Part shown: positions 19,626 to 64,000 of the stretch, piece after piece | Position numbering within the stretch: the first letter of the stretch is position 1 | How the letters are laid out: every line of letters begins with the position of its first letter | NCBI GenBank assembly: GCA_028865725.1 | Contig: JAGWJP010000004.1 | Span: forward strand, 5,567 to 69,566 | Length of the DNA stretch: 64,000 bases | Direction: 5' to 3' | Origin: Patescibacteria group bacterium | GTDB lineage: Bacteria; Patescibacteriota; Minisyncoccia; UBA6257; JACRHW01 | Made by a program: the position numbers and the translations under genes | The notes under the pieces: model-generated | Seen by the model: only the letters and a program-made list of their open reading frames with translations | Database searches by the model: none | What the model was told of the DNA's origin: nothing

Positions 19626-21113
19626 ATGAGGAGAGGAATTCAGGAAGCGATTGATGCTATTCTCGTGGGGATTATTGCGGGAGGTCTTGCGGCTCCTTTT
19701 CTGAGTACTTCAGTGACGTGGTATGTGTGCGCAGGGGTTGCCGTGACTGATCTTATAAGTATCGCCGCGTTTCGCAAGGCTATTTCCCTACGAGCCATGC
19801 AAACGTTTGTGGCGCTACAGGTAGTATGTGCGATGGTACTGTACGCGCACTTCTTTGTGGCAGCACAGCAGGCATGGGTCATGCGCATGTGGCAGCCGCG
19901 AGGCACCGTTGCGCTTGAAGGTGTGGTGGCATCTCCACCGGAATCCACAGACAAGGTTACGCGCTTTCTCATCGCAGTGTCCTCTCCGCATGTTACGCGT
20001 GTGAGCGTGGTGGGGGATATCCACACACTCGCCGATATCCGTTATGGAGATGTGGTGGGCGTCGCAGGTGTTGCAGAGACACCGCAAGCGTATACCGCCG
20101 CAAAAGATCCTACTCTACGCGCCGAGTTTGCGTTTCCTCGCGTATCTCTTCTTCATCATGCGGATTCGTTTTCATATTACGCCCGCCTTCTTGAGCTCAA
20201 AACCGTATTTGCTCACAACATTCAACGTAGTATTCCCGATCCTTATGCTTCGTTTGGTATCTCATTGCTTATGGGGAAATCAGGTATTCCTGCAGAACTT
20301 TCTCAAGCCATGCGCCTTACGGGTACCACGCATCTCGTTGCACTTTCCGGTTTTAATATTTCTGTCATGAGCGTATATCTTTTTTCATTTCTGTTGTGGC
20401 TTCGCATACATCGCAAAATAGCATTGCTGCTTTCCGGAATTATTATTATTGTGTTTGTAATCATGATGGGCGCTGAAGCATCTCTGGTGCGTGCGGCAGT
20501 GATGGGAGAGCTTGTGATTGTGGCCGGATTGCTAGGGAGGCCATATTCATTTTGGCGCGCGGTATTATGCGCTGCATGCGGGATGGTAGTATTGAACCCT
20601 GTTATTCTTATAAATGATGTAGGATTTCAACTTTCTTTTCTTGCAACCCTGGGTCTTGCGCTCTTGCTGCCTATTTTTGATACGCGATTCGGCGGGGGGG
20701 AGACAGTCTTTGATTGGAAAATGAATTTTTTTGCGACCTGTGCGAGTCAAATCATGGTATTTCCTATTCTCATAAATACATTTGGGATTTTTTCTCCGCT
20801 TTCTCTTGTCACGAACGTCTTGATCCTTTCTGTGATTCCTGCGACTATGCTTGTAGTATTTATGGTGGGGTTGTGCGGGTTTGTGAGCAGCATGTTTGCT
20901 GCAGCGATAGGACTTATCGCGTCGCTTCTTCTGGGATATGAAATCGGGGTGATCCGATTATTCTCGACCATCCCGCTTACGCTCACCTTTTCTGCCGGTT
21001 TTATGGCGCCACTATTTTTTGTGGTGTACTATATAGGGCTTGCACTCCTGATATCACGATTTTGGAACGTGCGGTATACTATAGATACGTATCATGTTTC
21101 AAGTACAGAATGA
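19626..21113 (+). CDS. comEC: ComEC/Rec2 family competence channel protein (short form, no C-terminal metallo-beta-lactamase domain)
   Basis: Polytopic membrane protein with LTGTTHLVALSGFNISVMSVYL competence-domain signature; ends at 495 aa. Confidence 0.8.
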   Translation: MRRGIQEAIDAILVGIIAGGLAAPFLSTSVTWYVCAGVAVTDLISIAAFRKAISLRAMQTFVALQVVCAMVLYAHFFVAAQQAWVMRMWQPRGTVALEGVVASPPESTDKVTRFLIAVSSPHVTRVSVVGDIHTLADIRYGDVVGVAGVAETPQAYTAAKDPTLRAEFAFPRVSLLHHADSFSYYARLLELKTVFAHNIQRSIPDPYASFGISLLMGKSGIPAELSQAMRLTGTTHLVALSGFNISVMSVYLFSFLLWLRIHRKIALLLSGIIIIVFVIMMGAEASLVRAAVMGELVIVAGLLGRPYSFWRAVLCAACGMVVLNPVILINDVGFQLSFLATLGLALLLPIFDTRFGGGETVFDWKMNFFATCASQIMVFPILINTFGIFSPLSLVTNVLILSVIPATMLVVFMVGLCGFVSSMFAAAIGLIASLLLGYEIGVIRLFSTIPLTLTFSAGFMAPLFFVVYYIGLALLISRFWNVRYTIDTYHVSSTE

Positions 21114-32700: not shown

Positions 32701-35175
32701 ATGTCTTTTGTTTTTTTTATTGTTGCGTGCGTAATCCTTCTCATATTGTTCGTGATAGGACTTCTTATGCTTTCGCGCTTCCGTGCGCGTGGAGCCCTGG
32801 CGCGCGGGCTTAATATGACGCTTTTTTCAGTACGTGTGGCACGTGAATTTTCAGAGCGTGGCGGTCAATCCGGAGAGCAACAGCAGAAACAAGAAAAAGA
32901 CCTCATTGCGGTTACTGAACAGATGCTTTCCTCAATGAGCAGTCTTCATTCTAAAGGATGGAAAAAATTTTTATACGGAGAACCTTATGTTGTATTTGAG
33001 ATAGGGGTGCATCATATCGGCGAAGAAATTAGCTTTTATGTAGCGACGCCCAATGCATATTCCGAACTTATTGAAAAACAGATTCATTCATTTTATCCGA
33101 CTGCAGAGATTGCGCCCGCGACAGACTATAATATTTTTAATCCTGCGGGTATAAGCGTGGGTGCATATATGATCCTCAAGGGGTATCAAGTGCTCCCTTT
33201 TCGTACGTATCAGATGCTTCCCGCAGATCCGCTTGGTGATATTTTGACAGCCATGTCAAAATTGTCACGCGAAGGGGAGGGTGCCGCATTTCAGGTCTTA
33301 ATTCGCCCATCGCACAAAAAGCATTATGCAAAAGAATCGTCCCGTATTCTCAAAGAGTTGCAAAAAGGGGTTTCTTGGAAGGAGGCGTTGCATAAAGTAG
33401 GATCATCATTTGGCACCGAAGTGCTCCAGGAAATAAATCGGGCGGTAAATCCTCTTGTCGAAACGTCAGGAGAAAAAAGGGAGGAGCCGCGGCAGGTACT
33501 CCCTCATCACCAAGAGTTGATAAAAGCGGTTGCGAATAAATTTTCCAAGCCGGCATTTGATGTGAATGTACGACTTGTTGCCTCTGCGCCTACTGAAATG
33601 AAAGCAGAAGAAATCTTGCGCGACATGCAGAGCGCGTTTGTTCAATTTGAAGCTCCGGATTTTAATGCATTTCATGCAGTGGCGATGAAAGGAAAAGCTC
33701 GCGACGCATTCATGCGCGATTATTCATTCAGAATTTTTAATGAACAGTACGCCATGTTTTTAGGTACGGAGGAAATAGCAAGTTTTTATCACTTTCCGCT
33801 TCCCACCACCGCGACACCTCGTGTACGGTTTCTCAAAGCAAAACCGGCAGAACCTCCGCGCGATCTCCCCGAAGCAGGAGTTATTTTGGGAACTAACGTG
33901 TATCGCGGACAGGAAACGCTCGTACGTATTCACGGAGAAGATCGCCGTCGGCACATGTATATTATTGGACAGACAGGGACAGGTAAATCAACCCTTTTAA
34001 AGCACATGATCCGTCAGGACATTGCGGCGGGGCATGGTATTGCAGTACTTGATCCGAATGGCGATCTGGTGGATGCGGCGCTTTCATATGTGCCCAAAGA
34101 ACGGGCTGATGATGTTATTGTGTTTGATCCGAGCGATGTGGCGCACCCTATGGGATTGAACTTTTTAACGATTGATCCCGCAAAGCCTACCCAAAAAACG
34201 GATGTGATCGATGAGTTTTATAAGATTTTAAAAGCAGTATATAAAGATCAGCCGGAGGGGTTCGGTCCGCTGTTTGAAAAATATTTTCGCTATGCCTTAA
34301 TGCTGTTGCTTGATGATTATGAAAATGAAATTCCTACTATCGCCGAAGTAGGAAGAGTATTTGCAGATGAAGCTTATCGTGAAGCAAAATTGAGCCGCGA
34401 AAAAAATCCTGATATCAAGCGTTTTTGGAAGTTTGAGGCGGAGCAAGCACAAGGTGATTGGTCGTTATCCAACATGTCAGCATATATTACCTCAAAATTT
34501 GCGCCGTTTCTGGGAAATGATTATATGCGTCCTATTATTACCCAGCAAAAGAGCGCGTTTGATTTTCGAAAAATGATGGACGAAAAAAAGATTCTTCTCG
34601 TGAAATTGCCGAAAGGTATTGTAGGAGAATTGAATGTCGCGCTCATCGGTATGATTATGGTTTCTCGCTTGATGCTTGCCGCGTTTTCGCGCGCCGATCT
34701 TTCCCCGGAAGACCAAAAGAAAGCTCCGGATTTTTTTGTGTATATCGACGAGTTTCAGGATTTTAGTACGGATTCATTAGCAACCATTCTTGCACAAGGA
34801 CGCAAATACCACATTGATCTTATTATGGCGCACCAGTTTATCGCCCAGCTTACCGATAAGGTGCGTGAAGCGGTATTTGGAAACGTGGGCACCCTGCTCG
34901 CGTTTCGTATTAGTCCGGATGATGCAGAAAAACTGAAAATTCAATTTCAGCCCGTGTTTTCTCCGGCAGATATTGTGAGCATTGATAATTTTAATTGTTA
35001 TATTAAACTTCTTATTGATGGTGCGCCGAGCAGACCTTTTAATATTCAATTCGGGTTTCCTCTGGAAGGCAATATGAAGCTTGCAGGGCAAATCGAAGAG
35101 CTTTCTCGCCTGAAATACGGAAGAGATCGGGAAGACGTTGAACGTGAATATTATGAACGAAGCGCCTCCGAGTAG
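32701..35175 (+). CDS. VirD4/TraD/TrwB-like type IV secretion coupling ATPase (T4SS DNA-binding domain family), N-terminal TM
   Basis: Walker A IIGQTGTGKSTLLKHM; Walker B/DEF region FFVYIDEFQDFSTDSLATILAQGRKYHIDLIMAHQFIAQL typical of TraG/TraD C-terminal domain. Confidence 0.7.
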   Translation: MSFVFFIVACVILLILFVIGLLMLSRFRARGALARGLNMTLFSVRVAREFSERGGQSGEQQQKQEKDLIAVTEQMLSSMSSLHSKGWKKFLYGEPYVVFEIGVHHIGEEISFYVATPNAYSELIEKQIHSFYPTAEIAPATDYNIFNPAGISVGAYMILKGYQVLPFRTYQMLPADPLGDILTAMSKLSREGEGAAFQVLIRPSHKKHYAKESSRILKELQKGVSWKEALHKVGSSFGTEVLQEINRAVNPLVETSGEKREEPRQVLPHHQELIKAVANKFSKPAFDVNVRLVASAPTEMKAEEILRDMQSAFVQFEAPDFNAFHAVAMKGKARDAFMRDYSFRIFNEQYAMFLGTEEIASFYHFPLPTTATPRVRFLKAKPAEPPRDLPEAGVILGTNVYRGQETLVRIHGEDRRRHMYIIGQTGTGKSTLLKHMIRQDIAAGHGIAVLDPNGDLVDAALSYVPKERADDVIVFDPSDVAHPMGLNFLTIDPAKPTQKTDVIDEFYKILKAVYKDQPEGFGPLFEKYFRYALMLLLDDYENEIPTIAEVGRVFADEAYREAKLSREKNPDIKRFWKFEAEQAQGDWSLSNMSAYITSKFAPFLGNDYMRPIITQQKSAFDFRKMMDEKKILLVKLPKGIVGELNVALIGMIMVSRLMLAAFSRADLSPEDQKKAPDFFVYIDEFQDFSTDSLATILAQGRKYHIDLIMAHQFIAQLTDKVREAVFGNVGTLLAFRISPDDAEKLKIQFQPVFSPADIVSIDNFNCYIKLLIDGAPSRPFNIQFGFPLEGNMKLAGQIEELSRLKYGRDREDVEREYYERSASE

Positions 35176-36537: not shown

Positions 36538-36635
36538 CTTCTCGGCAAAGCTGCCGGATCGTCTAATGGTAGGACAGCGGCCTTTGAAGCCGTGAATCTT
36601 GGTTCGATTCCAGGTCCGGCAGCTTTGCCGAGAAG
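36538..36635. repeat. Perfect 21-bp inverted repeat arms (36538-36558 and 36615-36635) enclosing the tRNA-Gln
   Basis: CTTCTCGGCAAAGCTGCCGGA is the exact reverse complement of TCCGGCAGCTTTGCCGAGAAG. Confidence 0.8.
36552..36622 (+). tRNA. tRNA-Gln (anticodon UUG)
   Basis: Manual cloverleaf: acceptor TGCCGGA/TCCGGCA, anticodon loop CTTTGAA with UUG, T-loop TTCGATT, discriminator G, U1-A72 as in bacterial tRNA-Gln; no encoded CCA. Confidence 0.85.
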
Positions 36636-51536: not shown

Positions 51537-54416
51537 ATGAAAATGACCGGAATTATTGCAGGAATTTGCTTTTTGTTGAGCTTTGGGTTCGCGCACGCGG
51601 CACGCACCACGTTCTTTACTGGCCCACATCCCGCTCAATCACTTGTGTGGGGGTACGGGTCGCATACCACCGCAGACAGAGTCGCCGAGGAATACACACC
51701 TTCATCTGACGAAGAGATATGCGAAGTAGATCATGCTTTGTATCGTTCATTGAACGCTTCAGGAGAGGTAATATTATCCGTATATGAGGGCGGTACAGAA
51801 CCTGAGTCGGGCACTTTGATCGCCACATCTTCTCTTTCAAGTGATGCCGTTCCTGTTTCGACGGTTTCGCACAATACTGTCTTTACTCTTGATTCGTGTA
51901 TGAATCTTGTTGCGCACACGTCATATTGGTTTGTCATGACGCGCACGAGACTGCAGTACGGTGCGGGATTTTATTCTCTCTATGGGGCACATGGGGATGA
52001 GGCATCTTCTTCCTACTGGGAGTTTGATACGTTTGGTCCGTATGGATGGCAGAAGCACGCAGATCGGGACTGGTCGTTGGAACTTAAAGGATCCGCACCC
52101 CTAAAAGAGCCCGTGATCATTGTTCCCGGGATTGCGGGAAGCGAACTTTATAATGGCGATGATCTGATCTGGGCAGATCTTACTCAGATGTTGTTTAGCG
52201 CGAGCGATCAATTTATGACCGATAATCTTGCGCTTGATAGCCAAGGAAAGTCGCTCAAATCCATTGAAGCGAAAGATGTAATTGAATCTATTTTGAATGT
52301 TCCACTACTTAGCGTTAATATTTTTAAAAACCTTCACGATGATTTAGTTACGAATAATTATACACTTGGTCAAGATCTCTTTCTTTTCCCCTACGATTGG
52401 CGCCTTAATCTTGATGTTACAGAGGATGCCTTAGCCGAAAAAATCAATGATGTATTGACGCAGACCGGCGCGGATAAGGTAACGATTATCGCGCATAGCA
52501 TGGGAGGACTTTTGGTCAAGGATTATATTCGTCATCATGGCGGGGCAGAGATCGACAAATTGATCTTTGTAGGTACGCCGCATCTTGGCGCACCGGAGGC
52601 GGGTCGCATTATGCTCTATGGCGATACAATGGGTATCCCATGGTTAAATCCTGCGCGCGTGCAGGAGATTACGGCATATTCTCCGGCGACCTACGAGCTC
52701 TTGCCGAGCAGCGCGTATTTTGAGTACTCTCCGGGATATCTTTTGACTGCGAGCTCGAGTACGTTTCTAGACAATGCTGCTTCGCGCGATGCTTTGCTTG
52801 CGCGCGGCGCACATGAGCCGATTATGGGGCTTGCGGATATGTTTTGGAATGAAAATCTCGAGAATCTCGATTTCTCTGGTATTGATACCTACAATATCGC
52901 GGGGTGTGGTACGGGGACGGAGTCTGCCTATGCAATAAAGAGCGATAACGCGCTTGGAAATATTGATTATACCTCAGGCGACGGTACGGTGCCGCTTGTA
53001 AGCGCAGATGCGATCGCCATTCCTTCCGATCACAAATGGTATGTAAAGAATGTAAAACATGCGGAGTTACCGAGCGCTATTGATGTGCGGAGTGTGATTG
53101 CACAAATCTTGTTAGACGGGTCGGTAACGCCTACGGGAAACATCACCGTGAGCGCCACGGATTGTGGTATTCAAGGTAAGGAGATTTCCTGGCATAGCCC
53201 TGTTGAGATTCATGTGTATGATACAGAAGGGCGGCATACCGGCCCCACCGGCAATAATGCAATTGAGTATGGTATTCCAGGTGTGGAGTATACAGTGGCG
53301 GGGCATGACAAGTTTGTTTTCCTGCCAAGTGGCGGCGAGTCGTACCACCTTGTGATGAAGGGGCTTGATAGCGGCTCGTTTGACATGAAAGTCGCCCAAA
53401 ACGTGAATGGCGCAGTAGGTGAAACGGCGGTGTTTAACGATGTGCCGATTACGGCTTCAAGCACGGGAACGATGGATATTACCGATACCAGCACTGACGA
53501 TACGTTGCAGGTTGATTCGGGTGAAGGAGAAAGTCCGTCTATGATTTTGGCGTCTTCTCATCTTGCGGCAGGCGAGGAGGGTGATGTCACGCCGCCCACG
53601 ACATCGCTTGAAATTGAGGGGGCAAGAGACAATGGGGCGTACCAAGGCCCAACGACTGTTTCGCTTACCGCAACAGATGATAATGCCGGAGTCGCGGAAA
53701 CATATGTTGCGCGTGATGGCGGCGACACAGAAGCGTACCGCGGGCCATTAGTGCTTTCTGATCTCGGTGCGCACACTCTTCGTTACTACTCAGTTGATAA
53801 CGCGGGAAATGACGAAACTTTGCAGGAAATTCATTTTAGCATTGAGGCCTCTTCACACGAATTGCGCGCACAATCTATTACGTTTGACGCGATTCCCGAT
53901 GCCGAGCTTGGTACTGCAGATATCGCACTTGTTGCCACATCCACTTCGGGACTCTCGTTGCAGTTTTTTTCGGAGAGTACCGGCACGTGTACTCTCGCGA
54001 GCTCCTCGGTGCATCTTGTGAGCGCAGGAACGTGCACGGTACGCGCGGAGCAGAGCGGAAGTGATTCTTATAGGGCGGCTTCGAGTTCTCAGTCGTTTGC
54101 AGTTCTCGCAGTACCGGTAGATTCTTCTTCAGAGGAGGAGCCGGCGATGAAAGAGGGAGCACATGGAAGTGGGAGTATCTACTTGCCAGTCGCGGCTGAA
54201 CAGCCGGCCGTGGTTGCCGCAGCAGTATCGGCGCCTCTTACGCACGCCACATCAAGCACGTGGGATATTACGGGCGATGGTGCGATTGATATTCATGATT
54301 TTAATACGCTCTGTATAAATTGGGGTGCGCTCGGACAAGGCCCTGCAGATCTGAACCATGATGGAGTGGTCGATATTTTTGACTTTAATGCGCTCATGGC
54401 GCATTGGGGTATGTAG
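51537..54416 (+). CDS. Secreted 959-aa protein: alpha/beta-hydrolase lipase-like domain (PGAP1/LCAT-like), beta-rich repeats, C-terminal dockerin-like domain
   Basis: Signal peptide; VIIVPGIAGSELY and nucleophile elbow IIAHSMGGLL; CHB_HEX_C-like repeat (RYYSVDNAGNDE); C-terminal tandem D-x-[TN]-x-DG-x-[IV]-D repeats DITGDGAIDIHDFN / DLNHDGVVDIFDFN. Confidence 0.6.
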   Translation: MKMTGIIAGICFLLSFGFAHAARTTFFTGPHPAQSLVWGYGSHTTADRVAEEYTPSSDEEICEVDHALYRSLNASGEVILSVYEGGTEPESGTLIATSSLSSDAVPVSTVSHNTVFTLDSCMNLVAHTSYWFVMTRTRLQYGAGFYSLYGAHGDEASSSYWEFDTFGPYGWQKHADRDWSLELKGSAPLKEPVIIVPGIAGSELYNGDDLIWADLTQMLFSASDQFMTDNLALDSQGKSLKSIEAKDVIESILNVPLLSVNIFKNLHDDLVTNNYTLGQDLFLFPYDWRLNLDVTEDALAEKINDVLTQTGADKVTIIAHSMGGLLVKDYIRHHGGAEIDKLIFVGTPHLGAPEAGRIMLYGDTMGIPWLNPARVQEITAYSPATYELLPSSAYFEYSPGYLLTASSSTFLDNAASRDALLARGAHEPIMGLADMFWNENLENLDFSGIDTYNIAGCGTGTESAYAIKSDNALGNIDYTSGDGTVPLVSADAIAIPSDHKWYVKNVKHAELPSAIDVRSVIAQILLDGSVTPTGNITVSATDCGIQGKEISWHSPVEIHVYDTEGRHTGPTGNNAIEYGIPGVEYTVAGHDKFVFLPSGGESYHLVMKGLDSGSFDMKVAQNVNGAVGETAVFNDVPITASSTGTMDITDTSTDDTLQVDSGEGESPSMILASSHLAAGEEGDVTPPTTSLEIEGARDNGAYQGPTTVSLTATDDNAGVAETYVARDGGDTEAYRGPLVLSDLGAHTLRYYSVDNAGNDETLQEIHFSIEASSHELRAQSITFDAIPDAELGTADIALVATSTSGLSLQFFSESTGTCTLASSSVHLVSAGTCTVRAEQSGSDSYRAASSSQSFAVLAVPVDSSSEEEPAMKEGAHGSGSIYLPVAAEQPAVVAAAVSAPLTHATSSTWDITGDGAIDIHDFNTLCINWGALGQGPADLNHDGVVDIFDFNALMAHWGM

Positions 54417-56792: not shown

Positions 56793-56895
56793 GAGTTCTC
56801 CATGCTGCCGAGCGAGGCAGCTTTTTGTATGTATACAAGCGTTGACAAGGGAGGATAGGATGATACACTTATTTTGGTTTATCGGAGGTGTGCAA

Positions 56896-57090
56896 ATGAA
56901 ATATTGTCCTGATTGCGGAACGATGATGCGCCTACTGCAGCAAGGAGATGGATGTGGGGGTATAGGGAAAACAGTAGCGTGTGTGTTCTGTGAAACCATA
57001 TGGAAGAAAACAGGCCGATCTTATGGATCTGTACAAGAAGTATGGTCAAAAGAGAAATTTCGGGCGCGAAGCGATAAGGAAAGGAGGTGA
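56896..57090 (+). CDS. Small zinc-ribbon protein (64 aa)
   Basis: CPDCG...CVFC pair; RBS GGAGGTG before ATG 56896. Confidence 0.4.
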   Translation: MKYCPDCGTMMRLLQQGDGCGGIGKTVACVFCETIWKKTGRSYGSVQEVWSKEKFRARSDKERR

Positions 57091-57300: not shown

Positions 57301-57413
57301 TTGATGCACAACTATTGAGTAAGTCGGGAAGAAACATAATTAAAAACATACACCAGGAAAGGTGTATATTTTGTTTTCTCGCCGCTACAAGTTTCACTTT
57401 TCCACAGTTTGTG

Positions 57414-57448
57414 TGTATACAGAATGGTTTATAATGTGTATATACACA
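57414..57448 (+). promoter_or_regulatory. Candidate LexA operator(s) overlapping lexA promoter: TGTATACA (57414-57421), TATAAT -10 (57430-57435), perfect palindrome TGTGTATATACACA (57435-57448)
   Basis: 14-bp perfect palindrome of TGT-N8-ACA type with AT-rich centre abutting -10 hexamer, 18 nt upstream of lexA ATG. Confidence 0.45.
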
Positions 57449-57465
57449 TCTTCTTACCCACTCTT

Positions 57466-58146
57466 ATGTCACACGTATCTCACAAACCAACTAAACTTCA
57501 ACAAAAGGTGCTCGATGTTATTATGCGCTATCATGAAAAACACAATGCGGCACCCACTATTTATGAAATCCAGAAAAAACTTGCGCTTATCTCGTCTCGC
57601 TCGGTCACTCAGCATCTTGAAGCGCTCGAGAAAAAAGGATTCATTCACCGTACGCGATATAAAAACAGGGGTATTATGTTAACGAGTACTCTCAAAGATG
57701 GGGAGATGGTACTGTTACCCGTATTTGCTTCAGCAGGATGTGGAAGTCCTGCGGTGATTGCCGAGCGCGCGTTCGATGAGTTTATGGAAGTTGCGTCCAA
57801 CCTCCTTAAAGGGAAAAAGAAAGAGGACTTGTTTGTGATGAAGGCCATAGGAAATTCAATGAACGAAGCCGGAATTCGGGACGGAGATTATGTGCTCGTC
57901 GAGCGTATCGTCGATCAAGATTTTGAAATGGGAGATTCAGTGGTAGCTATCATTGATGATCATGCGGTTATCAAGCGTTATACTCGCGCGGATGATTTGA
58001 TTATTCTGCAGCCTGTCTCATCGGATCGTGCGCACCGCGCTATTATTTTAGGGGGTGATGCGACGTATAAAATTTTTGGCAAAGTTATCCGCACAATCCA
58101 TATGCCCAAAACACGGGATATTCAGTACGCACCTGTGGTATCATAG
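57466..58146 (+). CDS. lexA: LexA repressor (S24 peptidase)
   Basis: N-terminal winged HTH (TIYEIQKKLALISSRSVTQHLEALEKKGFI), cleavage-site region, catalytic GNSM and K in C-terminal domain. Confidence 0.85.
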   Translation: MSHVSHKPTKLQQKVLDVIMRYHEKHNAAPTIYEIQKKLALISSRSVTQHLEALEKKGFIHRTRYKNRGIMLTSTLKDGEMVLLPVFASAGCGSPAVIAERAFDEFMEVASNLLKGKKKEDLFVMKAIGNSMNEAGIRDGDYVLVERIVDQDFEMGDSVVAIIDDHAVIKRYTRADDLIILQPVSSDRAHRAIILGGDATYKIFGKVIRTIHMPKTRDIQYAPVVS

Positions 58147-58153
58147 AGATGAT

Positions 58154-58498
58154 ATGAATGTGGATACGATCGCTGAACAGAATATCGCGTGCCCTCGTTG
58201 CGGTGCGGAAGAAAGAGCAGAGGCGTACTTTTGTTCGTACTGCGGCGCGGCTTTGCGAGAAAAGCCTCCAAGTACCACACTTGGCGCACAGCTCAAAGTA
58301 TATCTTATTGCATTATTGGTGCCTCCTTTTGGATTGTGGTATGGATGGAAATATGGAAAATGGGATGATCAGAAATCAAGATGGATTGCGCTTACCGCCT
58401 CACTGCTCACCCTTCTTTCGCTGTGGGCAACATGGTGGGTGATACAAAGTTTGATGTCATCATTAACTACGACACTGAACGCTATGGTGGGGATTTAA
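58154..58498 (+). CDS. Zinc-ribbon plus two-TM small membrane protein
   Basis: CPRCG...CSYCG N-terminal ribbon, then two hydrophobic helices; directly downstream of lexA. Confidence 0.45.
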   Translation: MNVDTIAEQNIACPRCGAEERAEAYFCSYCGAALREKPPSTTLGAQLKVYLIALLVPPFGLWYGWKYGKWDDQKSRWIALTASLLTLLSLWATWWVIQSLMSSLTTTLNAMVGI

Positions 58499-58555
58499 TT
58501 TACGGTAAGGTAAAACATTTCCACATCTTTTTTATCATATAATCTTTTTATTTTT

Positions 58556-59521
58556 ATGAATGTTTGTATTACACATCCTATTCCAGGATCCGGACCAGAG
58601 ATATTGCGGAGACAAGGATTTCATGTCACTGTCCTCGAACAGGACACTCCGTATACAAAAAGCGAGCTTCTTGCCTTAGTTCAGCACGAACAATATGATG
58701 CGGTGCTTTCTCTTCTTACTGATCCTATCGATGGGGAGGTGATTGGTGCCTTAGGTGCTCAATGCAAAATTATTGCCAATTATGCAGTCGGTTTTGATAA
58801 TATTGACATCAAGGAAGCACACAAGCGCGGAATTGTGGTAACGTATACTCCGGGGGTTCTGACGGATGCGGTTGCAGGGCACACTATTGCACTAATCCTT
58901 GCACTCTCGCGTCGTGTAGTGGAAGGAGATATATTCATACGTTCCGGAGAATTTAAAGGGTGGACATCTACACTGCTCCTTGGGGAAGACATCAAAGGAA
59001 AAACATTGGGTGTGGTGGGGTTGGGACGCATTGGATCGGAAGTTGCGCGGCGCATGAAGGCTGCATTTGATATGAATATTCTCTATTATGATGTGCGGCG
59101 TAATAGTGACGCGGAACGCCTCTGTGGAGCCAGGTTTTGTGAGTTGGACGCGCTGCTTCAGTCAGCGGATGTGGTAAGTCTCCACACAAACCTTACTCCA
59201 GAAACTCGTCACATGATAGATACCGAACGGCTGGCGCTCATGAAAAAAACAGCTTACCTCGTGAATACCTCACGAGGTGCGGTCATTGACGAAGCAGCAC
59301 TTGTTGTCGCACTTCAAGGACAACATATTGCCGGCGCGGCGCTTGATGTGTTGGAACACGAACCTACGCCTGCCGCGGGACTTTTAGATCTTCATAATGT
59401 AGTGCTCACTCCTCACATCGCTTCCGCCTCGCGGCATGCGCGTGAAACAATGTCAGAAATGTCCGCCCACGATATTATTGAAGTCCTGGAGGGGCGGCCC
59501 GCTCTTCATAGCGTGAAATAA
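58556..59521 (+). CDS. D-isomer-specific 2-hydroxyacid dehydrogenase (glycerate/phosphoglycerate dehydrogenase family)
   Basis: NAD-binding GVVGLGRIGSEVARR, catalytic R/E/H arrangement (...TSRG..., ...HIAS...). Confidence 0.85.
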   Translation: MNVCITHPIPGSGPEILRRQGFHVTVLEQDTPYTKSELLALVQHEQYDAVLSLLTDPIDGEVIGALGAQCKIIANYAVGFDNIDIKEAHKRGIVVTYTPGVLTDAVAGHTIALILALSRRVVEGDIFIRSGEFKGWTSTLLLGEDIKGKTLGVVGLGRIGSEVARRMKAAFDMNILYYDVRRNSDAERLCGARFCELDALLQSADVVSLHTNLTPETRHMIDTERLALMKKTAYLVNTSRGAVIDEAALVVALQGQHIAGAALDVLEHEPTPAAGLLDLHNVVLTPHIASASRHARETMSEMSAHDIIEVLEGRPALHSVK

Positions 59522-59525
59522 TATC

Positions 59526-60671
59526 ATGTCATTTTCGTACCGAACGTATGAATTCGCACCAAAAGAAGTAATACATATTTCCGAAGATCTTATATCACGG
59601 GCACGGCGGGAGCACCGTTTTTATGATGTGGCAGAGTCCACCATGTTGGGCTTGCTCTCTGATCTGATTCCAGGTTCAGCGCTTGCGTCCTCGTTTTTAG
59701 AGGAGTGGAAACGATTTGAGGCGGATGAGGGAGGCCTAAACTACGGTATTTATTTTTTGTATCCTCGCACCAATCATCTTGTGCGATTTGCCCCTCTGTA
59801 TTGGCATAGACTCGCGCTTCTTATGCGTAACACGACACTGTTTTTAGATCCTGCCATGCAGTATTCATGGGAAGAGGTGAGGAAGTGTTTTGATAACGTG
59901 GTGGTGGGGATTGCAGGATGTAGTGTGGGTAATAGTATTGCCCACGCGCTCGTAGGAGATCTTCGTTTGGGACACTTAAAAATTGCAGATCCTGATTGTT
60001 ATTACTTGCATAATGCAAATCGTGTCCGCCTCTCTCATGAGGATTTAGGGAGAAATAAGAGTGTAGTAACGGCGGAGCAAATTCATGCCCTTGATCCTTA
60101 TTGCGCACTCTCTGTCTTTAGCGAAGGAGTGCATGAACACAATGTGAAAGATTTTATTAAAGGAAATACCGCGCGCGATGAACCCGAAAGTACGGTGATT
60201 GTGGAAGAAACAGATAGTCCGGATATGAAACTGTTTATTCGGGAACAAGCACGTAGCCACAGAAAGCCGGTAGTGATGGTGACGGATTTGGGGTCGGCCG
60301 TACAACGCGATGTTCGACGGTTTGATCTTATTCCCGACCTTCCTTTGACGTATGGAGTCAGTGATCAAGAACTCTACGCAACGCGGGATGCGTGGCGCGC
60401 CGATTTGGCTAACAAGGACCGATTTTTTGAATTCGCGTTTGCGCTTGCGGGGACACACCACAATCGTCTCCCGGAGCTCAAACGTATTATTCTCAAAGAG
60501 CAGCCTCCTCTTTTTGGATGTGTGCCGCAGCTTGGTTCCACTGCAATGATGGCGGGCGGTGTTGCCTCGGAGGCCGTGGTGCGGCTTGTATTGGGGCATG
60601 CGCTTTGCGAGCGATTATTTATTAATAAACATACAGGAGAGGTCGTGGCAGAAGGAGAGATATTTGTATGA
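59526..60671 (+). CDS. E1-like (ThiF/MoeB/MccB-like) protein with degenerate Gly-rich loop and ~120-aa N-terminal extension
   Basis: VVVGIAGCSVGNSIAHALVGDLRLGHLKIADPDCYYLHNANRV parallels ThiF VxVxGxGGxGS...LxLxDxDxVxxSNLNRQ; downstream VVMVTD parallels ThiF VLDCTD. Confidence 0.5.
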   Translation: MSFSYRTYEFAPKEVIHISEDLISRARREHRFYDVAESTMLGLLSDLIPGSALASSFLEEWKRFEADEGGLNYGIYFLYPRTNHLVRFAPLYWHRLALLMRNTTLFLDPAMQYSWEEVRKCFDNVVVGIAGCSVGNSIAHALVGDLRLGHLKIADPDCYYLHNANRVRLSHEDLGRNKSVVTAEQIHALDPYCALSVFSEGVHEHNVKDFIKGNTARDEPESTVIVEETDSPDMKLFIREQARSHRKPVVMVTDLGSAVQRDVRRFDLIPDLPLTYGVSDQELYATRDAWRADLANKDRFFEFAFALAGTHHNRLPELKRIILKEQPPLFGCVPQLGSTAMMAGGVASEAVVRLVLGHALCERLFINKHTGEVVAEGEIFV

Positions 60672-61726
60672 AGAATTATGACGCATGGAACATAGAGCCG
60701 CTTCGTGATATGGGCGACAGGCATGCACTGTATCTGAATCTTATTCAATGGGCAATCTTGGCGCCCAATTCGCACAATGTACAACCTTGGCGGTTTGTGA
60801 TACGCGCGCGTGATCATGAAATTGTTCTCTACGTTGCGAAGGAGGGAATTCTTCCCGCATCAGATATAATAGGGAGACAAGCGCATATCAGTGTGGGGTG
60901 TGCACTCGAAAATCTTGCGCAAGCCGCAGCATATTATGGCATGACCATCGTTCCGCATATTACCCACACCGAGGACAAGGAGACGTGTGTGAGGATAGTA
61001 TGTTCCGATCCTTCCGCGCATGCTGAAGAGCACGATGGAGTATCGCTTGATTCTATGCGCCAGCGTCGCGTGAACCGCGGAAAATTCGATACGGCGCGCA
61101 ACCTTCCCGAGGCACTTATCCAATCTTTTCATACGTATGCACAAGCAGGCGGACTTATATTTGATAGCATCCGTGATATCCCTACGCGTCTTGCGATCGC
61201 GCAATTTCAGGAGCAAGCAGAAAAGTATGTTTTAGCGCATGATGCGTTTCGTAAGGAGTTGGGTAATTATTTTCTTCCTAACGCTACGGAGGAGGGGCGA
61301 GGAATGCCGGGAAATACATTTGGACTGGGAGATGAGACGTCTTTGCGTGTTCACCGCGCTTTACAACAGGAGGGACCGTTCGACCCCGATCTCGCAAACG
61401 GCATGGCGGTCTCAGCGCGTGATGCTATGAAACATTCCCCGCTTATCGGTATTATTAGTATAGAGGAAGATATGCCGTTCTATTGGATTCAAGCGGGAAG
61501 GGTATTGCAACGCAACCTTCTTGAAGCTGAGCGGTACGGAGCAAGTACTTCGATTCACGCAGCGTTGATAGAAGTAAATTTTTTTAATAAGTTATTACGA
61601 TTGCGTTTGAAGAGAAGCGCGCGTCCGACTGTGTTATTTAGAGCGGGATTTTGTACAGAAGAGAGACCTCATGCGCCACGGGCGCCCATAGAAGGGGTAG
61701 TTACCGTGGAGAAAGATCGTGTTTGA
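60668..61726 (+). CDS. Long nitroreductase-family (FMN-dependent, SagB/McbC-like length) protein
   Basis: LAPNSHNVQPWRFVI matches nitroreductase S..N.QPW.F.V signature; 352 aa (longer than classical NfsB-type); ATGA coupling to upstream gene. Confidence 0.6.
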   Translation: MKNYDAWNIEPLRDMGDRHALYLNLIQWAILAPNSHNVQPWRFVIRARDHEIVLYVAKEGILPASDIIGRQAHISVGCALENLAQAAAYYGMTIVPHITHTEDKETCVRIVCSDPSAHAEEHDGVSLDSMRQRRVNRGKFDTARNLPEALIQSFHTYAQAGGLIFDSIRDIPTRLAIAQFQEQAEKYVLAHDAFRKELGNYFLPNATEEGRGMPGNTFGLGDETSLRVHRALQQEGPFDPDLANGMAVSARDAMKHSPLIGIISIEEDMPFYWIQAGRVLQRNLLEAERYGASTSIHAALIEVNFFNKLLRLRLKRSARPTVLFRAGFCTEERPHAPRAPIEGVVTVEKDRV

Positions 61727-61727
61727 T

Positions 61728-62837
61728 ATGGCAAAGAAACTTATTTCGTCTCACCGGTCTACGCGTTTACGAAAGCTTGCACAAGCAATACCGTCTCCTC
61801 TTGCGACCTATCGCAAGGGAGACGTATTGTTTTATGTCTATCGTGCGAAAAATCTTTTTTCTCCTACTTGGGATCATCCCGTGCTCAAAAAGCTCGTCGC
61901 GGAAGCGAGGCGCGAATCGTATTACCGGTATGGAGATATTGCGGAATTTGATGCGTATGACAGCAAGGCCGTGGTGTACGTGGCGCGCGTTGTATATAAC
62001 GATGTGCGCGGAACCATAGCATACCCAGTAGAAGAATGGGCTACGATGCGTTTTGTCCCTCGGGATGGCGTGCCTCACGACATTGAAGATTTCAAGGAGT
62101 ATGAGTTGCATGGGCAACCAATGGGAAGCTCTGCACATAATTCTCTTTTTTCCGCGCATCAGTTGACTGCAGATAATGTGATTTCCGGATCACGTCTCTC
62201 GGGAATCCGTTCCTATTGTCTTCGGAAATATGATGAGCATGATTCAAAACATATTCCCCGTTTTTGCTATTTTAGAGAATGTTTCGTTTTGATGCATCAT
62301 GCATTTCTGAAGCTCAATGTTGCGCGCAATACATTTCGTTACCGTGTGGCACAGACCTCTCACGAGTTTATTGAGAGAGTTCTTACATTTACCGTACGTG
62401 GACAACGCATCGCGCTCACGTGTACGCCAGCGCATCGTATGCTTCATGTAGCGCCGCATGCGATACGATTACAAAGAAAGGGAATCGTATTTCAATATCC
62501 GGCCTATTTTTTGAACCAAAAGGAGCTTTATCTTCTTTTTTCTTCTCTGGTAAAAAAGAATCTGCTGACTTCGAATACGCTGCGCCATTATTTTTCCGCT
62601 TCGTGCACGCAAAATTCGTTTCTCACTCAGCATCAATTTACCTTTTTCCAAGCACGCCTCCTGGGGACATTATGCAGTGCGGAGGGGACTCTTTACGGCA
62701 CTCTACTTACCGGAGAGGAACTTCGCGTGTTGGTGCGCGACATAAGCGATGGGCCTTTTTTATCCATTACCCCCCTTGATACAGTGGAAAAAAATATTGA
62801 GTTATTTATGCGCGAAGAACATATTACGCGTATTTAA
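61728..62837 (+). CDS. Hypothetical protein, last gene of E1-like/nitroreductase operon
   Basis: ATG 1 nt after upstream stop; no recognisable motif. Confidence 0.4.
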   Translation: MAKKLISSHRSTRLRKLAQAIPSPLATYRKGDVLFYVYRAKNLFSPTWDHPVLKKLVAEARRESYYRYGDIAEFDAYDSKAVVYVARVVYNDVRGTIAYPVEEWATMRFVPRDGVPHDIEDFKEYELHGQPMGSSAHNSLFSAHQLTADNVISGSRLSGIRSYCLRKYDEHDSKHIPRFCYFRECFVLMHHAFLKLNVARNTFRYRVAQTSHEFIERVLTFTVRGQRIALTCTPAHRMLHVAPHAIRLQRKGIVFQYPAYFLNQKELYLLFSSLVKKNLLTSNTLRHYFSASCTQNSFLTQHQFTFFQARLLGTLCSAEGTLYGTLLTGEELRVLVRDISDGPFLSITPLDTVEKNIELFMREEHITRI

Positions 62838-62869: not shown

Positions 62870-64000
62870 ATGGTAATAATACAAAACATTTTTGCATTTA
62901 TTGTTGTAGCCTATTTGGGCATTTCCGTGTTGTTACGCGACCCCAAAAGCGCCACGCATCGGCTGTTTTTTCTCCTTGCTTTTCTTCAGGATGTCTATAT
63001 TGTAACGAACTATTTTTCGTTATATCCTCCTCTCCCGACTATTGCTGATCAACTGATATGGATTCGTTTAGTCATGCTGGTAGGCGCTTTTGTGGGTCCC
63101 ACCTTGTTTCTTCTTGCCATTACGTTTCCCCGAAATACGATACCGCTTCCTTTGTTGTATCGGGTAGGTATTGTGGTGCTCGCATGCGGTACGGCCTTTG
63201 CGACACTGATGCCGCTTGTGTTCTCGGCTCTCGTATTTGATCGTGGAATGCCCGTCCCTATTCCGGGTCCTTGGATCGGTCTTTATTTTCTCGACGTTCC
63301 CGGGCTTTTTATCGCGAGTTTCGTGGTTTTATTTTTAAAATATCGGCGGACGCGGGGAACGGAGAAGATCAAAAATCTTTATTTATTTTTAGGAATATCG
63401 ATAAGTTTTCTTCTTCTTATCGTGACTACGTTTATTGCGGTTGTGATGTTTCATCGTTCCGATTTGGTCGGGTGGGGGCCCTTTTTTCCCGTGCTTCTTG
63501 TCGGTACCATTGCGTACGCAGTCGTAAAACATCATTTTCTCGATATGCGGCCTTTTATTTTACGTTCTGCAACTTTTCTTCTTCTTATTATTATGCTGGC
63601 GCTTGTTGCGGGGATCTTGTTTCTGGGTATTGTGAATCATTTCGTTCCTATTGATCGCGTTACTTTTATTGTATTTTTGGTGGTAATGACTATTGTGGCG
63701 CTTGTGTTCCACCCCCTTACAGAATTGTTGGGCACATTTACGAATCGAATTTTTTTTAAGGGACAGTATAATACCGATCTTCTCCTTTCTCGACTGACGC
63801 GTATTATGGCAAGCACGATTGATTTTAATGTGCTGACTGCACAGATATTGAAAACATTGATCGAGGAATTGCGTGTCACTAAAGCCGCATTGCTTCTTGT
63901 CACAAATCACTCGATTACGGAAACAAGAGTAAAAGAATATGATACGCATATCTTTGAGAAAAAAGATTTTGAAGACATCGCGTTTCATCGTGGAGGTACT
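62870..64000 (+). CDS. Sensor protein N-terminus: 7TM (His_kinase-N7-like) domain plus GAF-like start; truncated by window end
   Basis: Seven hydrophobic helices; YAVVKHHFLDMRPFILRSATFLLLIIML resembles conserved helix of 7TM receptor-kinase N-domains; then LLSRLTRIMASTIDFNVLTAQILKTLIEEL GAF-like; no stop before 64000. Confidence 0.5.
   Translation, partial: MVIIQNIFAFIVVAYLGISVLLRDPKSATHRLFFLLAFLQDVYIVTNYFSLYPPLPTIADQLIWIRLVMLVGAFVGPTLFLLAITFPRNTIPLPLLYRVGIVVLACGTAFATLMPLVFSALVFDRGMPVPIPGPWIGLYFLDVPGLFIASFVVLFLKYRRTRGTEKIKNLYLFLGISISFLLLIVTTFIAVVMFHRSDLVGWGPFFPVLLVGTIAYAVVKHHFLDMRPFILRSATFLLLIIMLALVAGILFLGIVNHFVPIDRVTFIVFLVVMTIVALVFHPLTELLGTFTNRIFFKGQYNTDLLLSRLTRIMASTIDFNVLTAQILKTLIEELRVTKAALLLVTNHSITETRVKEYDTHIFEKKDFEDIAFHRGGT

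Follow-up and report, generated by a model that had tools for sequence, protein, structure and literature searches.

We find that three adjacent genes (positions 59526 to 62837) in the 64,000-nucleotide window analyzed here, which comes from a Patescibacteria MAG, likely specify, on separate polypeptides, a pathway of three enzymes of the recently discovered OxzAB, TyzACB or TrzAS type, which makes N-acyl oxazolones or N-acyl-dehydroamino acids. The trio comprises a ThiF/E1-like protein, an Acg-type flavoprotein and a founder of an unannotated family, hereafter protein X. It is followed by a 7TM sensor histidine kinase, and this linkage is what makes the cluster of interest. What we established directly is how the genes are laid out, which families and folds their products belong to, and their conservation, fusions and synteny; all of the chemistry, the substrates and what the kinase does are inferred.

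Four ORFs are tightly packed on the forward strand, as an earlier sequence-only reading had described: a D-2-hydroxyacid dehydrogenase (58556 to 59521, 321 aa), the ThiF/E1-like protein (59526 to 60671, 381 aa), the flavoprotein (60668 to 61726, 352 aa) and protein X (61728 to 62837, 369 aa, or 372 aa from an alternative GTG start at 61719). Read from the sequence, the successive junctions are TAA followed by 4 nt and ATG, an ATGA overlap (-4 nt), and TGA followed by 1 nt and ATG. The kinase gene starts on the same strand at 62870, 32 nt past the stop codon of protein X, and the window ends within it at 64000; its N-terminal part matches Pfam HisKA_7TM (1.3e-6). The first gene was correctly called a 2-hydroxyacid dehydrogenase: its matches to Pfam 2-Hacid_dh_C (9e-63) and, under the curated cut-off, to the NCBIfam glyoxylate reductase model (7e-102) identify it as glyoxylate/hydroxypyruvate reductase-like. 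It is probably co-transcribed with the trio in the window. Comparison with 21 related loci (29-59% identity) nevertheless dissolves the proposed four-gene unit, since the dehydrogenase gene occurs in only two of them and in the second lies 4 kb off on the opposite strand. It is a lineage-specific upstream neighbor outside the conserved module.

The arrangement of the other three genes is kept in relatives. The protein X gene adjoins the ThiF-like gene in all 17 loci where the sequence allows the comparison, and one relative (P0149) encodes X and ThiF as a single fusion protein. With the flavoprotein gene present in 19 of 21 loci, the suggestion that the E1-like and nitroreductase-like proteins act as a functional pair is supported. 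Synteny across the 21 loci, fusion included, already refutes a chance juxtaposition of housekeeping genes, namely an adenylyltransferase of MoeB/ThiF/TcdA type, a nitroreductase of NfsB type and a hypothetical protein with no connection to them. The Pfam ThiF and nitroreductase matches fit this explanation, to which we give almost no credence, but the NCBIfam scores of the ThiF-like protein fall far under the cut-offs for ThiF (48.9 against 159), MoeB (22.8 against 266) and TcdA (26.6 against 304), in agreement with the earlier view that it is no housekeeping MoeB or TcdA.

The ThiF-like protein matches Pfam ThiF (5e-13), and among NCBIfam models that of Rv1355c/TrzS, over its N-terminal half, is clearly the strongest hit (1e-40; the next ThiF model reaches 6e-13). 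The flavoprotein matches the C-terminal half of the Rv1355c model (2e-17). Because the scores (139.7 bits for the ThiF-like protein and 62.7 bits for the flavoprotein, against a curated cut-off of 476) lie under the NCBIfam cut-offs, the two proteins are classed as relatives, not orthologues, of the characterized enzymes. The nucleotide loop G128-I-A-G-C-S-V-G135 (59907 to 59930, forward strand, residues 128-135) is indeed non-canonical and aligns to G-I-G-G-V-G of TcdA. Its G131, S133 and G135 are invariant among 54 family members, and the GxSxG loop reads as a conserved variant rather than decay. In the same alignment R166, K178, D230 and D254 are invariant and D155 nearly so; D155, R166, K178 and D230 align with conserved positions of TcdA which, by analogy with other E1-like enzymes, we take to belong to the nucleotide site. 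As the odd loop and these ATP-site residues are kept throughout the family, the protein is probably an enzyme and not the non-adenylating scaffold that the loop had been taken to indicate. We predict that it is an ATP-dependent cyclase, an analogue of TyzB and of the N-terminal parts of TrzS and OxzB. The N-terminal extension noted earlier (residues 1-120) is real and conserved across the family, with the DSSP order helix-strand-helix-helix-hairpin. Profile comparison places TcdA (2e-13), the tRNA ct6A dehydratase, as the family's nearest sequence relative of solved structure; this enzyme is an ATP-dependent, oxazolone-forming cyclodehydratase. TcdA differs in acting on tRNA, in lacking the N-terminal extension and an FDO or GNAT partner, and in its canonical GxGGxG loop.

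The nitroreductase-like protein, earlier given SagB/McbC length, is better classified not as SagB/McbC-type but as an Acg-type flavin-dependent oxidase (FDO) within the monomeric class of about 350 aa, to which TyzC also belongs (PMC10404671). It has a weak Pfam nitroreductase match, matches the NCBIfam Acg family at 3e-54 (184.6 bits against a cut-off of 199) and aligns over its full length with MsAcg (2ymv, 1e-12), and the HNxQPW and RRxxR motifs are kept in 14 orthologues. No SagB-type NCBIfam match was found at E <= 0.01. This class assignment weakens an analogy with the B and C components of TOMM synthetases such as McbBCD and SagBCD, which likewise pair an E1-like fold with an FMN nitroreductase-fold partner. 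On that analogy the trio would be a YcaO-less, RiPP-like peptide-modification system, whose E1-like protein would bind the leader peptide as a non-catalytic scaffold and whose nitroreductase-like protein would act as azoline dehydrogenase; the helix and beta-hairpin topology of the N-terminal extension would fit. MccB and PaaA, however, align over 231-239 residues only, which correspond to the E1 core, the nucleotide-site residues are intact, and the third conserved partner has the fold of a GNAT acyltransferase. The absences already reported also hold up. A Pfam scan detected no YcaO in the window's 18 ORFs of at least 350 aa or in two of 347-348 aa, and the Pfam lists already computed for six related loci (L001-L004, L019 and L020) contain none. 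Scanning all six frames of 56.8-64 kb for ORFs of 20-90 aa revealed none inside the cluster, where the intergenic gaps are 4, -4, 1 and 32 nt, and none that was C/S/T-rich as a precursor would be. Peptide modification of this kind is thus largely refuted already, and we regard it as very improbable.

Protein X had been considered unassignable. At the sequence level this was accurate: searches of Pfam, NCBIfam, PADLOC and PDB sequences returned no match, its profile finds nothing among PDB sequences, it falls outside PF13444 and PF00765, and its hhalign comparison with a canonical Acetyltransf_5 fragment has a probability of 0.1%. At the fold level an assignment could be reached, to an N-terminal GNAT domain of the N-acyl-amino-acid-synthase (NAS) or AHL-synthase type (Foldseek E only 3e-3), followed by a helical C-terminal region of about 110 aa that is without a structural match. 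Since protein X lacks sequence similarity to canonical NAS and LuxI proteins and the Foldseek match is weak, its predicted role as an N-acyltransferase analogous to TyzA, TrzA and OxzA is drawn from fold, context and the fusion. A LuxI-type AHL synthase identity finds no sequence support: none of 73 family members matches PF00765 (Autoind_synth) at E <= 1. A ThiF-type enzyme should need a free carboxylate, which an N-acyl amino acid has and an AHL does not.

The combination of NAS, ThiF and nitroreductase genes in overlapping ORFs is a recognized signature of N-acyl-dehydrotyrosine and oxazolone clusters (PMC12479983; PMC10404671). In the proposed pathway, protein X would N-acylate an amino acid from an acyl-CoA or acyl-ACP donor. 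The ThiF-like protein, judging from its family relationship and conserved nucleotide-site residues, would then use ATP to adenylate the N-acyl amino acid at its free carboxylate and allow ring closure by the amide oxygen to a 5(4H)-oxazolone. By homology, the Acg-type FMN oxidase would introduce a C-alpha/C-beta double bond. The predicted product is an oxazolone derived from an N-acyl (dehydro)amino acid, or the N-acyl-dehydroamino acid that its hydrolysis gives. Desaturation is not obligatory, because the FDO is absent from two loci (L007 and L018). Two further points count against this pathway: fatty-acid synthesis, a source of acyl donors, is mostly missing in Patescibacteria, and the characterized FDO step requires O2.

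The same three enzyme classes may also carry out other chemistry and yield a small molecule other than an oxazolone, although we consider this unlikely. Protein X could acylate a substrate that is not a proteinogenic amino acid, or could itself be an AHL-type synthase proper, the ThiF-like enzyme could activate a carboxylate to form an amide, thioacid or ester, and the FDO could oxidize a different lipid. The distant, fold-level kinship of protein X and its extra helical region would agree with such variants, as would the family-specific N-terminal domain and loop of the ThiF-like protein. The FDO scores higher on the Acg family model than on the C-terminal half of Rv1355c, and the substrates of Acg-type FDO-B enzymes are not known in the literature. 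In addition, the planctomycete and Massilia trio makes N-acyl-dehydrotyrosines, and no oxazolone was observed (PMC12479983). Against these stand the trio itself, with its X-ThiF fusion, as the signature of the characterized pathway, and the clear preference of the ThiF-like protein for the TrzS model.

Among the known systems closest to the trio is TyzACB of Mycobacterium tuberculosis (Rv2336, Rv2338c and Rv2337c), which makes N-acyl tyrazolones (Grigg et al., 2023, PMC10404671). There, as in the window, three separate proteins with operon-like packing are involved: an acyltransferase of FeeM/AHL-synthase fold that lacks informative annotation, the part predicted for protein X, an ATP-dependent cyclase resembling ThiF, and an Acg-like FDO, monomeric and about 350-370 aa long. 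The window differs in its Patescibacteria host, in a protein X with no detectable sequence similarity to known NAS families and an added C-terminal region, in the N-terminal domain and GxSxG loop of the ThiF-like protein, and in the 7TM histidine kinase that is always adjacent here and is not mentioned for tyz. The oxazolone synthetases of TrzAS (Rv1356c-Rv1355c; PMC12856293) and OxzAB (Pseudoalteromonas rubra; de Rond et al., bioRxiv 10.1101/2020.06.11.147165) also have an adjacent acyltransferase gene. They are ThiF-FDO fusions, shown experimentally for TrzS as a ThiF-cyclase/FDO fusion (PMC12856293), whereas the window proteins come from separate genes with a 4-nt overlap and score far under the equivalog cut-off; in one relative (P0149) ThiF is fused to the predicted acyltransferase instead. 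The clusters of NasY, ThiF and nitroreductase genes behind the stieleriacines, thalassotalic acids and kyonggic acids, whose products are N-acyl-dehydrotyrosines, have the same trio in overlapping or nearly abutting ORFs (PMC12479983). Unlike the window, they encode a canonical NAS, belong to Planctomycetota and Pseudomonadota, often include methyltransferases and have no described sensor kinase.

An orthologous 7TM histidine kinase adjoins the cluster in all 16 informative loci, with a sensor region in the window kinase that is 34-44% identical to those of the adjacent kinases in 15 other loci; a tandem second kinase copy in one locus (L006) has 26% sensor-region identity. In 12 loci the fetched flanks also contain a stand-alone receiver gene. 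As the trio is inherited with this kinase, and often with a receiver, its product is most likely tied to a two-component signaling circuit. The adjacency suggests that the product could be a signal: the kinase would either control the pathway or detect the lipophilic product through its membrane domain. The sequence-only reading had proposed a peptide- or metabolite-modification system under a 7TM-GAF sensor. Its metabolite option and the sensor link are retained, the peptide option is not; the sensor is HisKA_7TM, and GAF_2 is seen below threshold in two of three long orthologues tested. The orthologues have the order 7TM-(weak GAF_2)-HisKA-HATPase_c, and six short forms without the GAF-like region retain the orthologous 7TM domain, which points to the membrane domain as the conserved sensing element.

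Perception of the product by the kinase is contested by a comparison with the mycobacterial Dos regulon, of which the FDO-B proteins Acg, Rv3127 and Rv3131 are members. In such a stress or hypoxia module the kinase would sense redox, gas or membrane state and switch on the Acg-like flavoprotein, and the product would be no signal for it. The weak GAF_2 of the long kinases and the flanking receivers make this a real if minority option. The short kinases without a GAF-like region speak against it, as do the conservation of protein X and the ThiF-like protein to the same degree as the FDO and the retention of the kinase in the two loci that lack the FDO.

LuxM/LuxN and CqsA/CqsS are pairs of an autoinducer synthase and an adjacent polytopic sensor kinase. 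Bernard et al. (2020, PMC7567580) reported pairs of a LuxI homolog and a sensory kinase from CPR genomes. In all of these, as in the window, a gene with a signal-synthase fold comes directly upstream of a gene for a multi-pass membrane histidine kinase and runs in the same direction, a likeness of the genes alone.

Four closely packed genes lie on the + strand of the window and encode a D-2-hydroxyacid dehydrogenase (58556-59521), a ThiF/E1-like protein (59526-60671), a flavin-dependent oxidase (FDO, 60668-61726) and a protein that we call X (61728-62837). The sequence-only reading had the coordinates and junctions of these ORFs right: the first gene ends with TAA, followed by 4 nt and an ATG, the second and third share an ATGA overlap, and the TGA of the third is separated by 1 nt from the ATG of the fourth. 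A fifth gene in the same direction (+), recognized by a HisKA_7TM match to its N-terminal part, starts at 62870, 32 nt past the stop of X, and runs off the window end; it encodes a membrane sensor histidine kinase (7TM kinase). An AT-rich stretch with a TATAAT was found by eye upstream of the dehydrogenase gene (58520-58555), and a promoter and terminator scan gave no enrichment compared to shuffles.

We compared 21 loci, namely the window and 20 related loci (L001-L020); 14 of the related loci were gathered via a tighter alignment. Most labelled loci belong to Patescibacteria lineages, L001 and L002 are metagenome contigs, and the labels outside Patescibacteria are Myxococcota (L016), Gammaproteobacteria (L018) and Poribacteria (L019, through cluster member P0249). 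Identity to the window proteins is 37-55% for ThiF, 29-45% for the FDO and 24-33% for X. The neighbourhood conservation that had been proposed as a check is clear: in every one of the 17 loci with enough sequence to tell, X adjoins ThiF, and an FDO is found in 19/21. The two loci that miss it, L007 and L018, retain ThiF, X and the 7TM kinase with no FDO within 8 kb, and no substitute oxidoreductase was found in them. A fusion of X with the ThiF-like protein, which keeps its N-terminal extension, is found in one relative (P0149). The Poribacteria-labelled locus, with its X-ThiF fusion, has the FDO on the other strand and is flanked by receivers on each side, and a DDE transposase separates its FDO gene from the 7TM kinase gene. 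Unless the bin label of this contig is wrong, the module is thus present beyond Patescibacteria as well.

The unit proposed earlier, a four-gene operon, does not survive this comparison. The first gene encodes a D-2-hydroxyacid dehydrogenase (Pfam, 9e-63) that is glyoxylate-reductase-like with a score under the curated cut-off. We rejected it as a pathway member because a dehydrogenase gene occurs in only 2/21 loci, and in the second of these (L019) the 2-Hacid_dh gene lies 4 kb away on the opposite strand.

Over almost its entire length, the FDO resembles Acg-family FMN oxidoreductases (NCBIfam, 3e-54; 184.6 bits, below the cut-off of 199); a second match is to the C-terminal half of the NCBIfam Rv1355c model (2e-17). 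It matches MsAcg (PDB 2ymv) over its full length, and the HNxQPW and RRxxR motifs common to both are kept in 14 orthologues. The NCBIfam and 2ymv matches make it an Acg-type protein and not the SagB/McbC-length nitroreductase suggested before. Among curated models, the ThiF-like protein is matched best by the N-terminal half of the NCBIfam 'Rv1355c family protein' (1e-40), with ThiF a distant second (6e-13). Its loop G128-I-A-G-C-S-V-G135 is non-canonical, as had been noticed, yet constant within the family: G131, S133 and G135 are invariant among 54 homologues. Across the same homologues R166, K178, D230 and D254 are invariant and D155 nearly so; when profiles are aligned, D155, R166, K178 and D230 fall on conserved TcdA positions, which in E1-like enzymes belong to the nucleotide site. 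This conservation pattern fits an active adenylating enzyme and speaks against the decayed, non-adenylating scaffold of the sequence-only reading. As for the likening of the ~120-aa N-terminal extension to the peptide clamps of MccB and PaaA, both align over only 231-239 residues, a span similar to that of MoeB (220) and AclA (234), and the extension is therefore unmatched to their peptide-clamp domains. A defense-system reading was rejected, PADLOC having given weak domain-level E1 matches only.

An E1-like protein next to a nitroreductase-like one recalls the B and C components of TOMM synthetases, and a TOMM/RiPP-type peptide modification had been proposed by that analogy. It can essentially be excluded: there is no YcaO among the window ORFs scanned and no precursor ORF of 20-90 aa in a six-frame scan of 56.8-64 kb, the flavoprotein is of the wrong class, and the adenylation residues are intact.

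The three genes from ThiF to X resemble another set of pathways, discovered between 2020 and 2025 and reported from Pseudomonadota, Actinomycetota and Planctomycetota, whose product function is open. In Pseudoalteromonas rubra, a ThiF-nitroreductase enzyme and an N-acyltransferase (OxzAB) make N-acyl oxazolones (bioRxiv 10.1101/2020.06.11.147165). TyzA of M. tuberculosis is unannotated, with FeeM and an AHL synthase as nearest structural homologues, while TyzB is a ThiF-like ATP-dependent cyclase and TyzC an Acg-like monomeric flavin-dependent oxidase (PMC10404671). TrzS of the TrzAS pathway, that is Rv1355c, is a ThiF-FDO fusion (PMC12856293), and the same trio of genes, its ORFs overlapping, marks the N-acyl-dehydrotyrosine clusters of Planctomycetota and Pseudomonadota (PMC12479983). 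The characterised FDO step consumes O2. The window encodes the same enzyme set as three separate polypeptides, which are relatives and not orthologues of the characterised enzymes since the curated equivalog cut-offs are unmet.

Protein X has no match in Pfam, NCBIfam, PADLOC, PDB sequences or a PDB profile search, a word-indexed homologue search returned only X itself, as an identical NCBI entry from a 'Patescibacteria group bacterium' MAG, and 73 family members scanned against Pfam at E <= 1 pointed to no consistent family. An exhaustive HMMER search, the sole sequence search to reveal the family, found at least 223 cluster representatives (E <= 1e-3). The AF2 model from a 73-sequence alignment (pLDDT 93.7, pTM 0.91) matches the GNAT superfamily in Foldseek, with FeeM third and weak statistics; no structural counterpart turned up for its helical C-terminal region of ~110 aa. 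The earlier verdict that X is unassignable thus holds for sequence families but not at the level of the fold. X may share LuxI-like motifs (R-x3-aromatic, D-x2-D, R-x-x-P and S-R). Based on fold, context and fusion, X is predicted to be an acyltransferase, one without a sequence bridge to canonical NAS families, and its family, with its extra domain, appears to be a new acyltransferase family unrecognised by Pfam and NCBIfam models.

Two unusual family members were seen. P0126 (contig L021, 4262-5644) carries an extra N-terminal fragment resembling canonical Acetyltransf_5 (2.3e-7), and the X profile is negative against this fragment by hhalign and hmmsearch; the gene stands alone on its 6.3-kb contig, which lacks ThiF, FDO and kinase genes. 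P0190 (L020, 7001-9118, Candidatus Magasanikbacteria) is an X-family protein whose N-terminus is fused to a dihydroorotate-dehydrogenase-like FMN domain; ThiF, the FDO (on the other strand) and a 7TM kinase come after it. Dihydroorotate dehydrogenase also desaturates beside an amide, and the fusion may be meaningful.

In the oxazolone-type mechanism that we propose, X would N-acylate an amino acid, the ThiF-like enzyme would adenylate the free carboxylate so that the amide oxygen closes the oxazolone ring, and the FDO would desaturate the C-alpha/C-beta bond. Because a ThiF-type enzyme requires a free carboxylate, X more likely makes an N-acyl amino acid than an AHL. That the same enzyme classes perform a different small-molecule chemistry is plausible but less likely. 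Patescibacteria mostly lack fatty-acid synthesis, which bears on the acyl donor. Acyl chains could be freed from host lipids by a secreted protein of 959 aa that is encoded 4 kb upstream of the cluster (51537-54416, +) and has an LCAT-type alpha/beta-hydrolase domain (Pfam, 8e-24) and C-terminal dockerin-like repeats.

A 7TM kinase adjoins the cluster in all 16 informative loci, with a sensor region 34-44% identical to that of the window. That the trio is so strictly co-inherited with an orthologous kinase suggests a functional link with two-component signalling, in which the kinase may either regulate the genes or sense the product. A stand-alone receiver gene was found in the fetched flanks of 12 loci, and most of these have it right next to the module. 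Long kinases have a 7TM-(sub-threshold GAF_2)-HisKA-HATPase_c architecture, and six short forms keep the 7TM domain with the GAF-like region gone, which leans towards membrane or lipophilic sensing. A Dos-like arrangement, in which the kinase senses an external cue, competes only with the extension that the kinase senses the product; the short forms, which lack the GAF-like region but not the 7TM domain, lean against it. More tentatively, and with more doubt than confidence, the receiver, cyclase, FDO, GNAT acyltransferase and 7TM kinase may form a self-contained Patescibacteria autoinducer circuit whose product is a labile N-acyl oxazolone or N-acyl-dehydroamino acid and whose kinase is the membrane receptor. 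If true, this would be the first receptor for oxazolone lipids and a dedicated chemical signalling system in host-dependent ultra-small bacteria. Through the kinase coupling, the suggestion that oxazolones may be signals becomes testable, with a specific receptor candidate. In L006 (12831-16158) the 7TM kinase gene downstream of the cluster is duplicated in tandem, and the second copy is only 26% identical to the window sensor region.

The cluster is not categorically new because its biosynthetic logic is known. It differs from the known pathways in its phylum, in the X family with its extra domain, in the N-terminal domain and GxSxG loop of its ThiF protein and in its invariant kinase linkage, all of which appear new relative to the literature searched. 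Judged from sequence, it is probably a widespread, very divergent version of the pathway in Patescibacteria and one Poribacteria-labelled contig. Our literature search returned no paper joining Patescibacteria or CPR with oxazolone, and the term 'histidine kinase' is absent from the pathway papers on tyz (PMC10404671) and on N-acyl-dehydrotyrosine clusters (PMC12479983). Partial prior art comes from Bernard et al. (2020; PMC7567580), who list CPR 'LuxI homologs' beside sensor kinases as candidate quorum-sensing systems and whose main text leaves ThiF unmentioned. The likeness is one of LuxI-homolog/sensor-kinase adjacency; these homologs may belong to the X family, and cross-checks of the accessions available for them gave no match. 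These findings bear on acyl-donor supply and communication in genome-reduced episymbionts thought to be without fatty-acid synthesis, and could better the labels 'hypothetical protein' and 'ThiF family adenylyltransferase' in hundreds of MAGs.

Elsewhere in the window are typical chromosomal genes (DnaK/J, GroEL, DnaG, RpoD, ComEC, SerRS, Alr, RNase R, PurA, LexA), nearly all long ORFs being on the + strand. Upstream of the dehydrogenase gene lie a LexA-like repressor (LexA_DNA_bind and Peptidase_S24; 57409-58146, +) and, directly before the dehydrogenase, a zinc-ribbon protein with predicted membrane helices (58055-58498, +). The purA-lexA spacer holds an 82-aa ORF with two zinc-ribbon-like CxxC pairs (56842-57090, +), and a gene of 76 aa is called at the same position in the related contig L022. 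GC skew is positive over 50-62 kb, and AT skew falls sharply across the 7TM kinase gene. A single tRNA, Gln (36552-36623), is the only Rfam match in the window. DNA-uptake or transfer machinery is represented by a VirD4/TraG-like coupling ATPase of 824 aa (32701-35175, +) and by ComEC (19626-21113, +).
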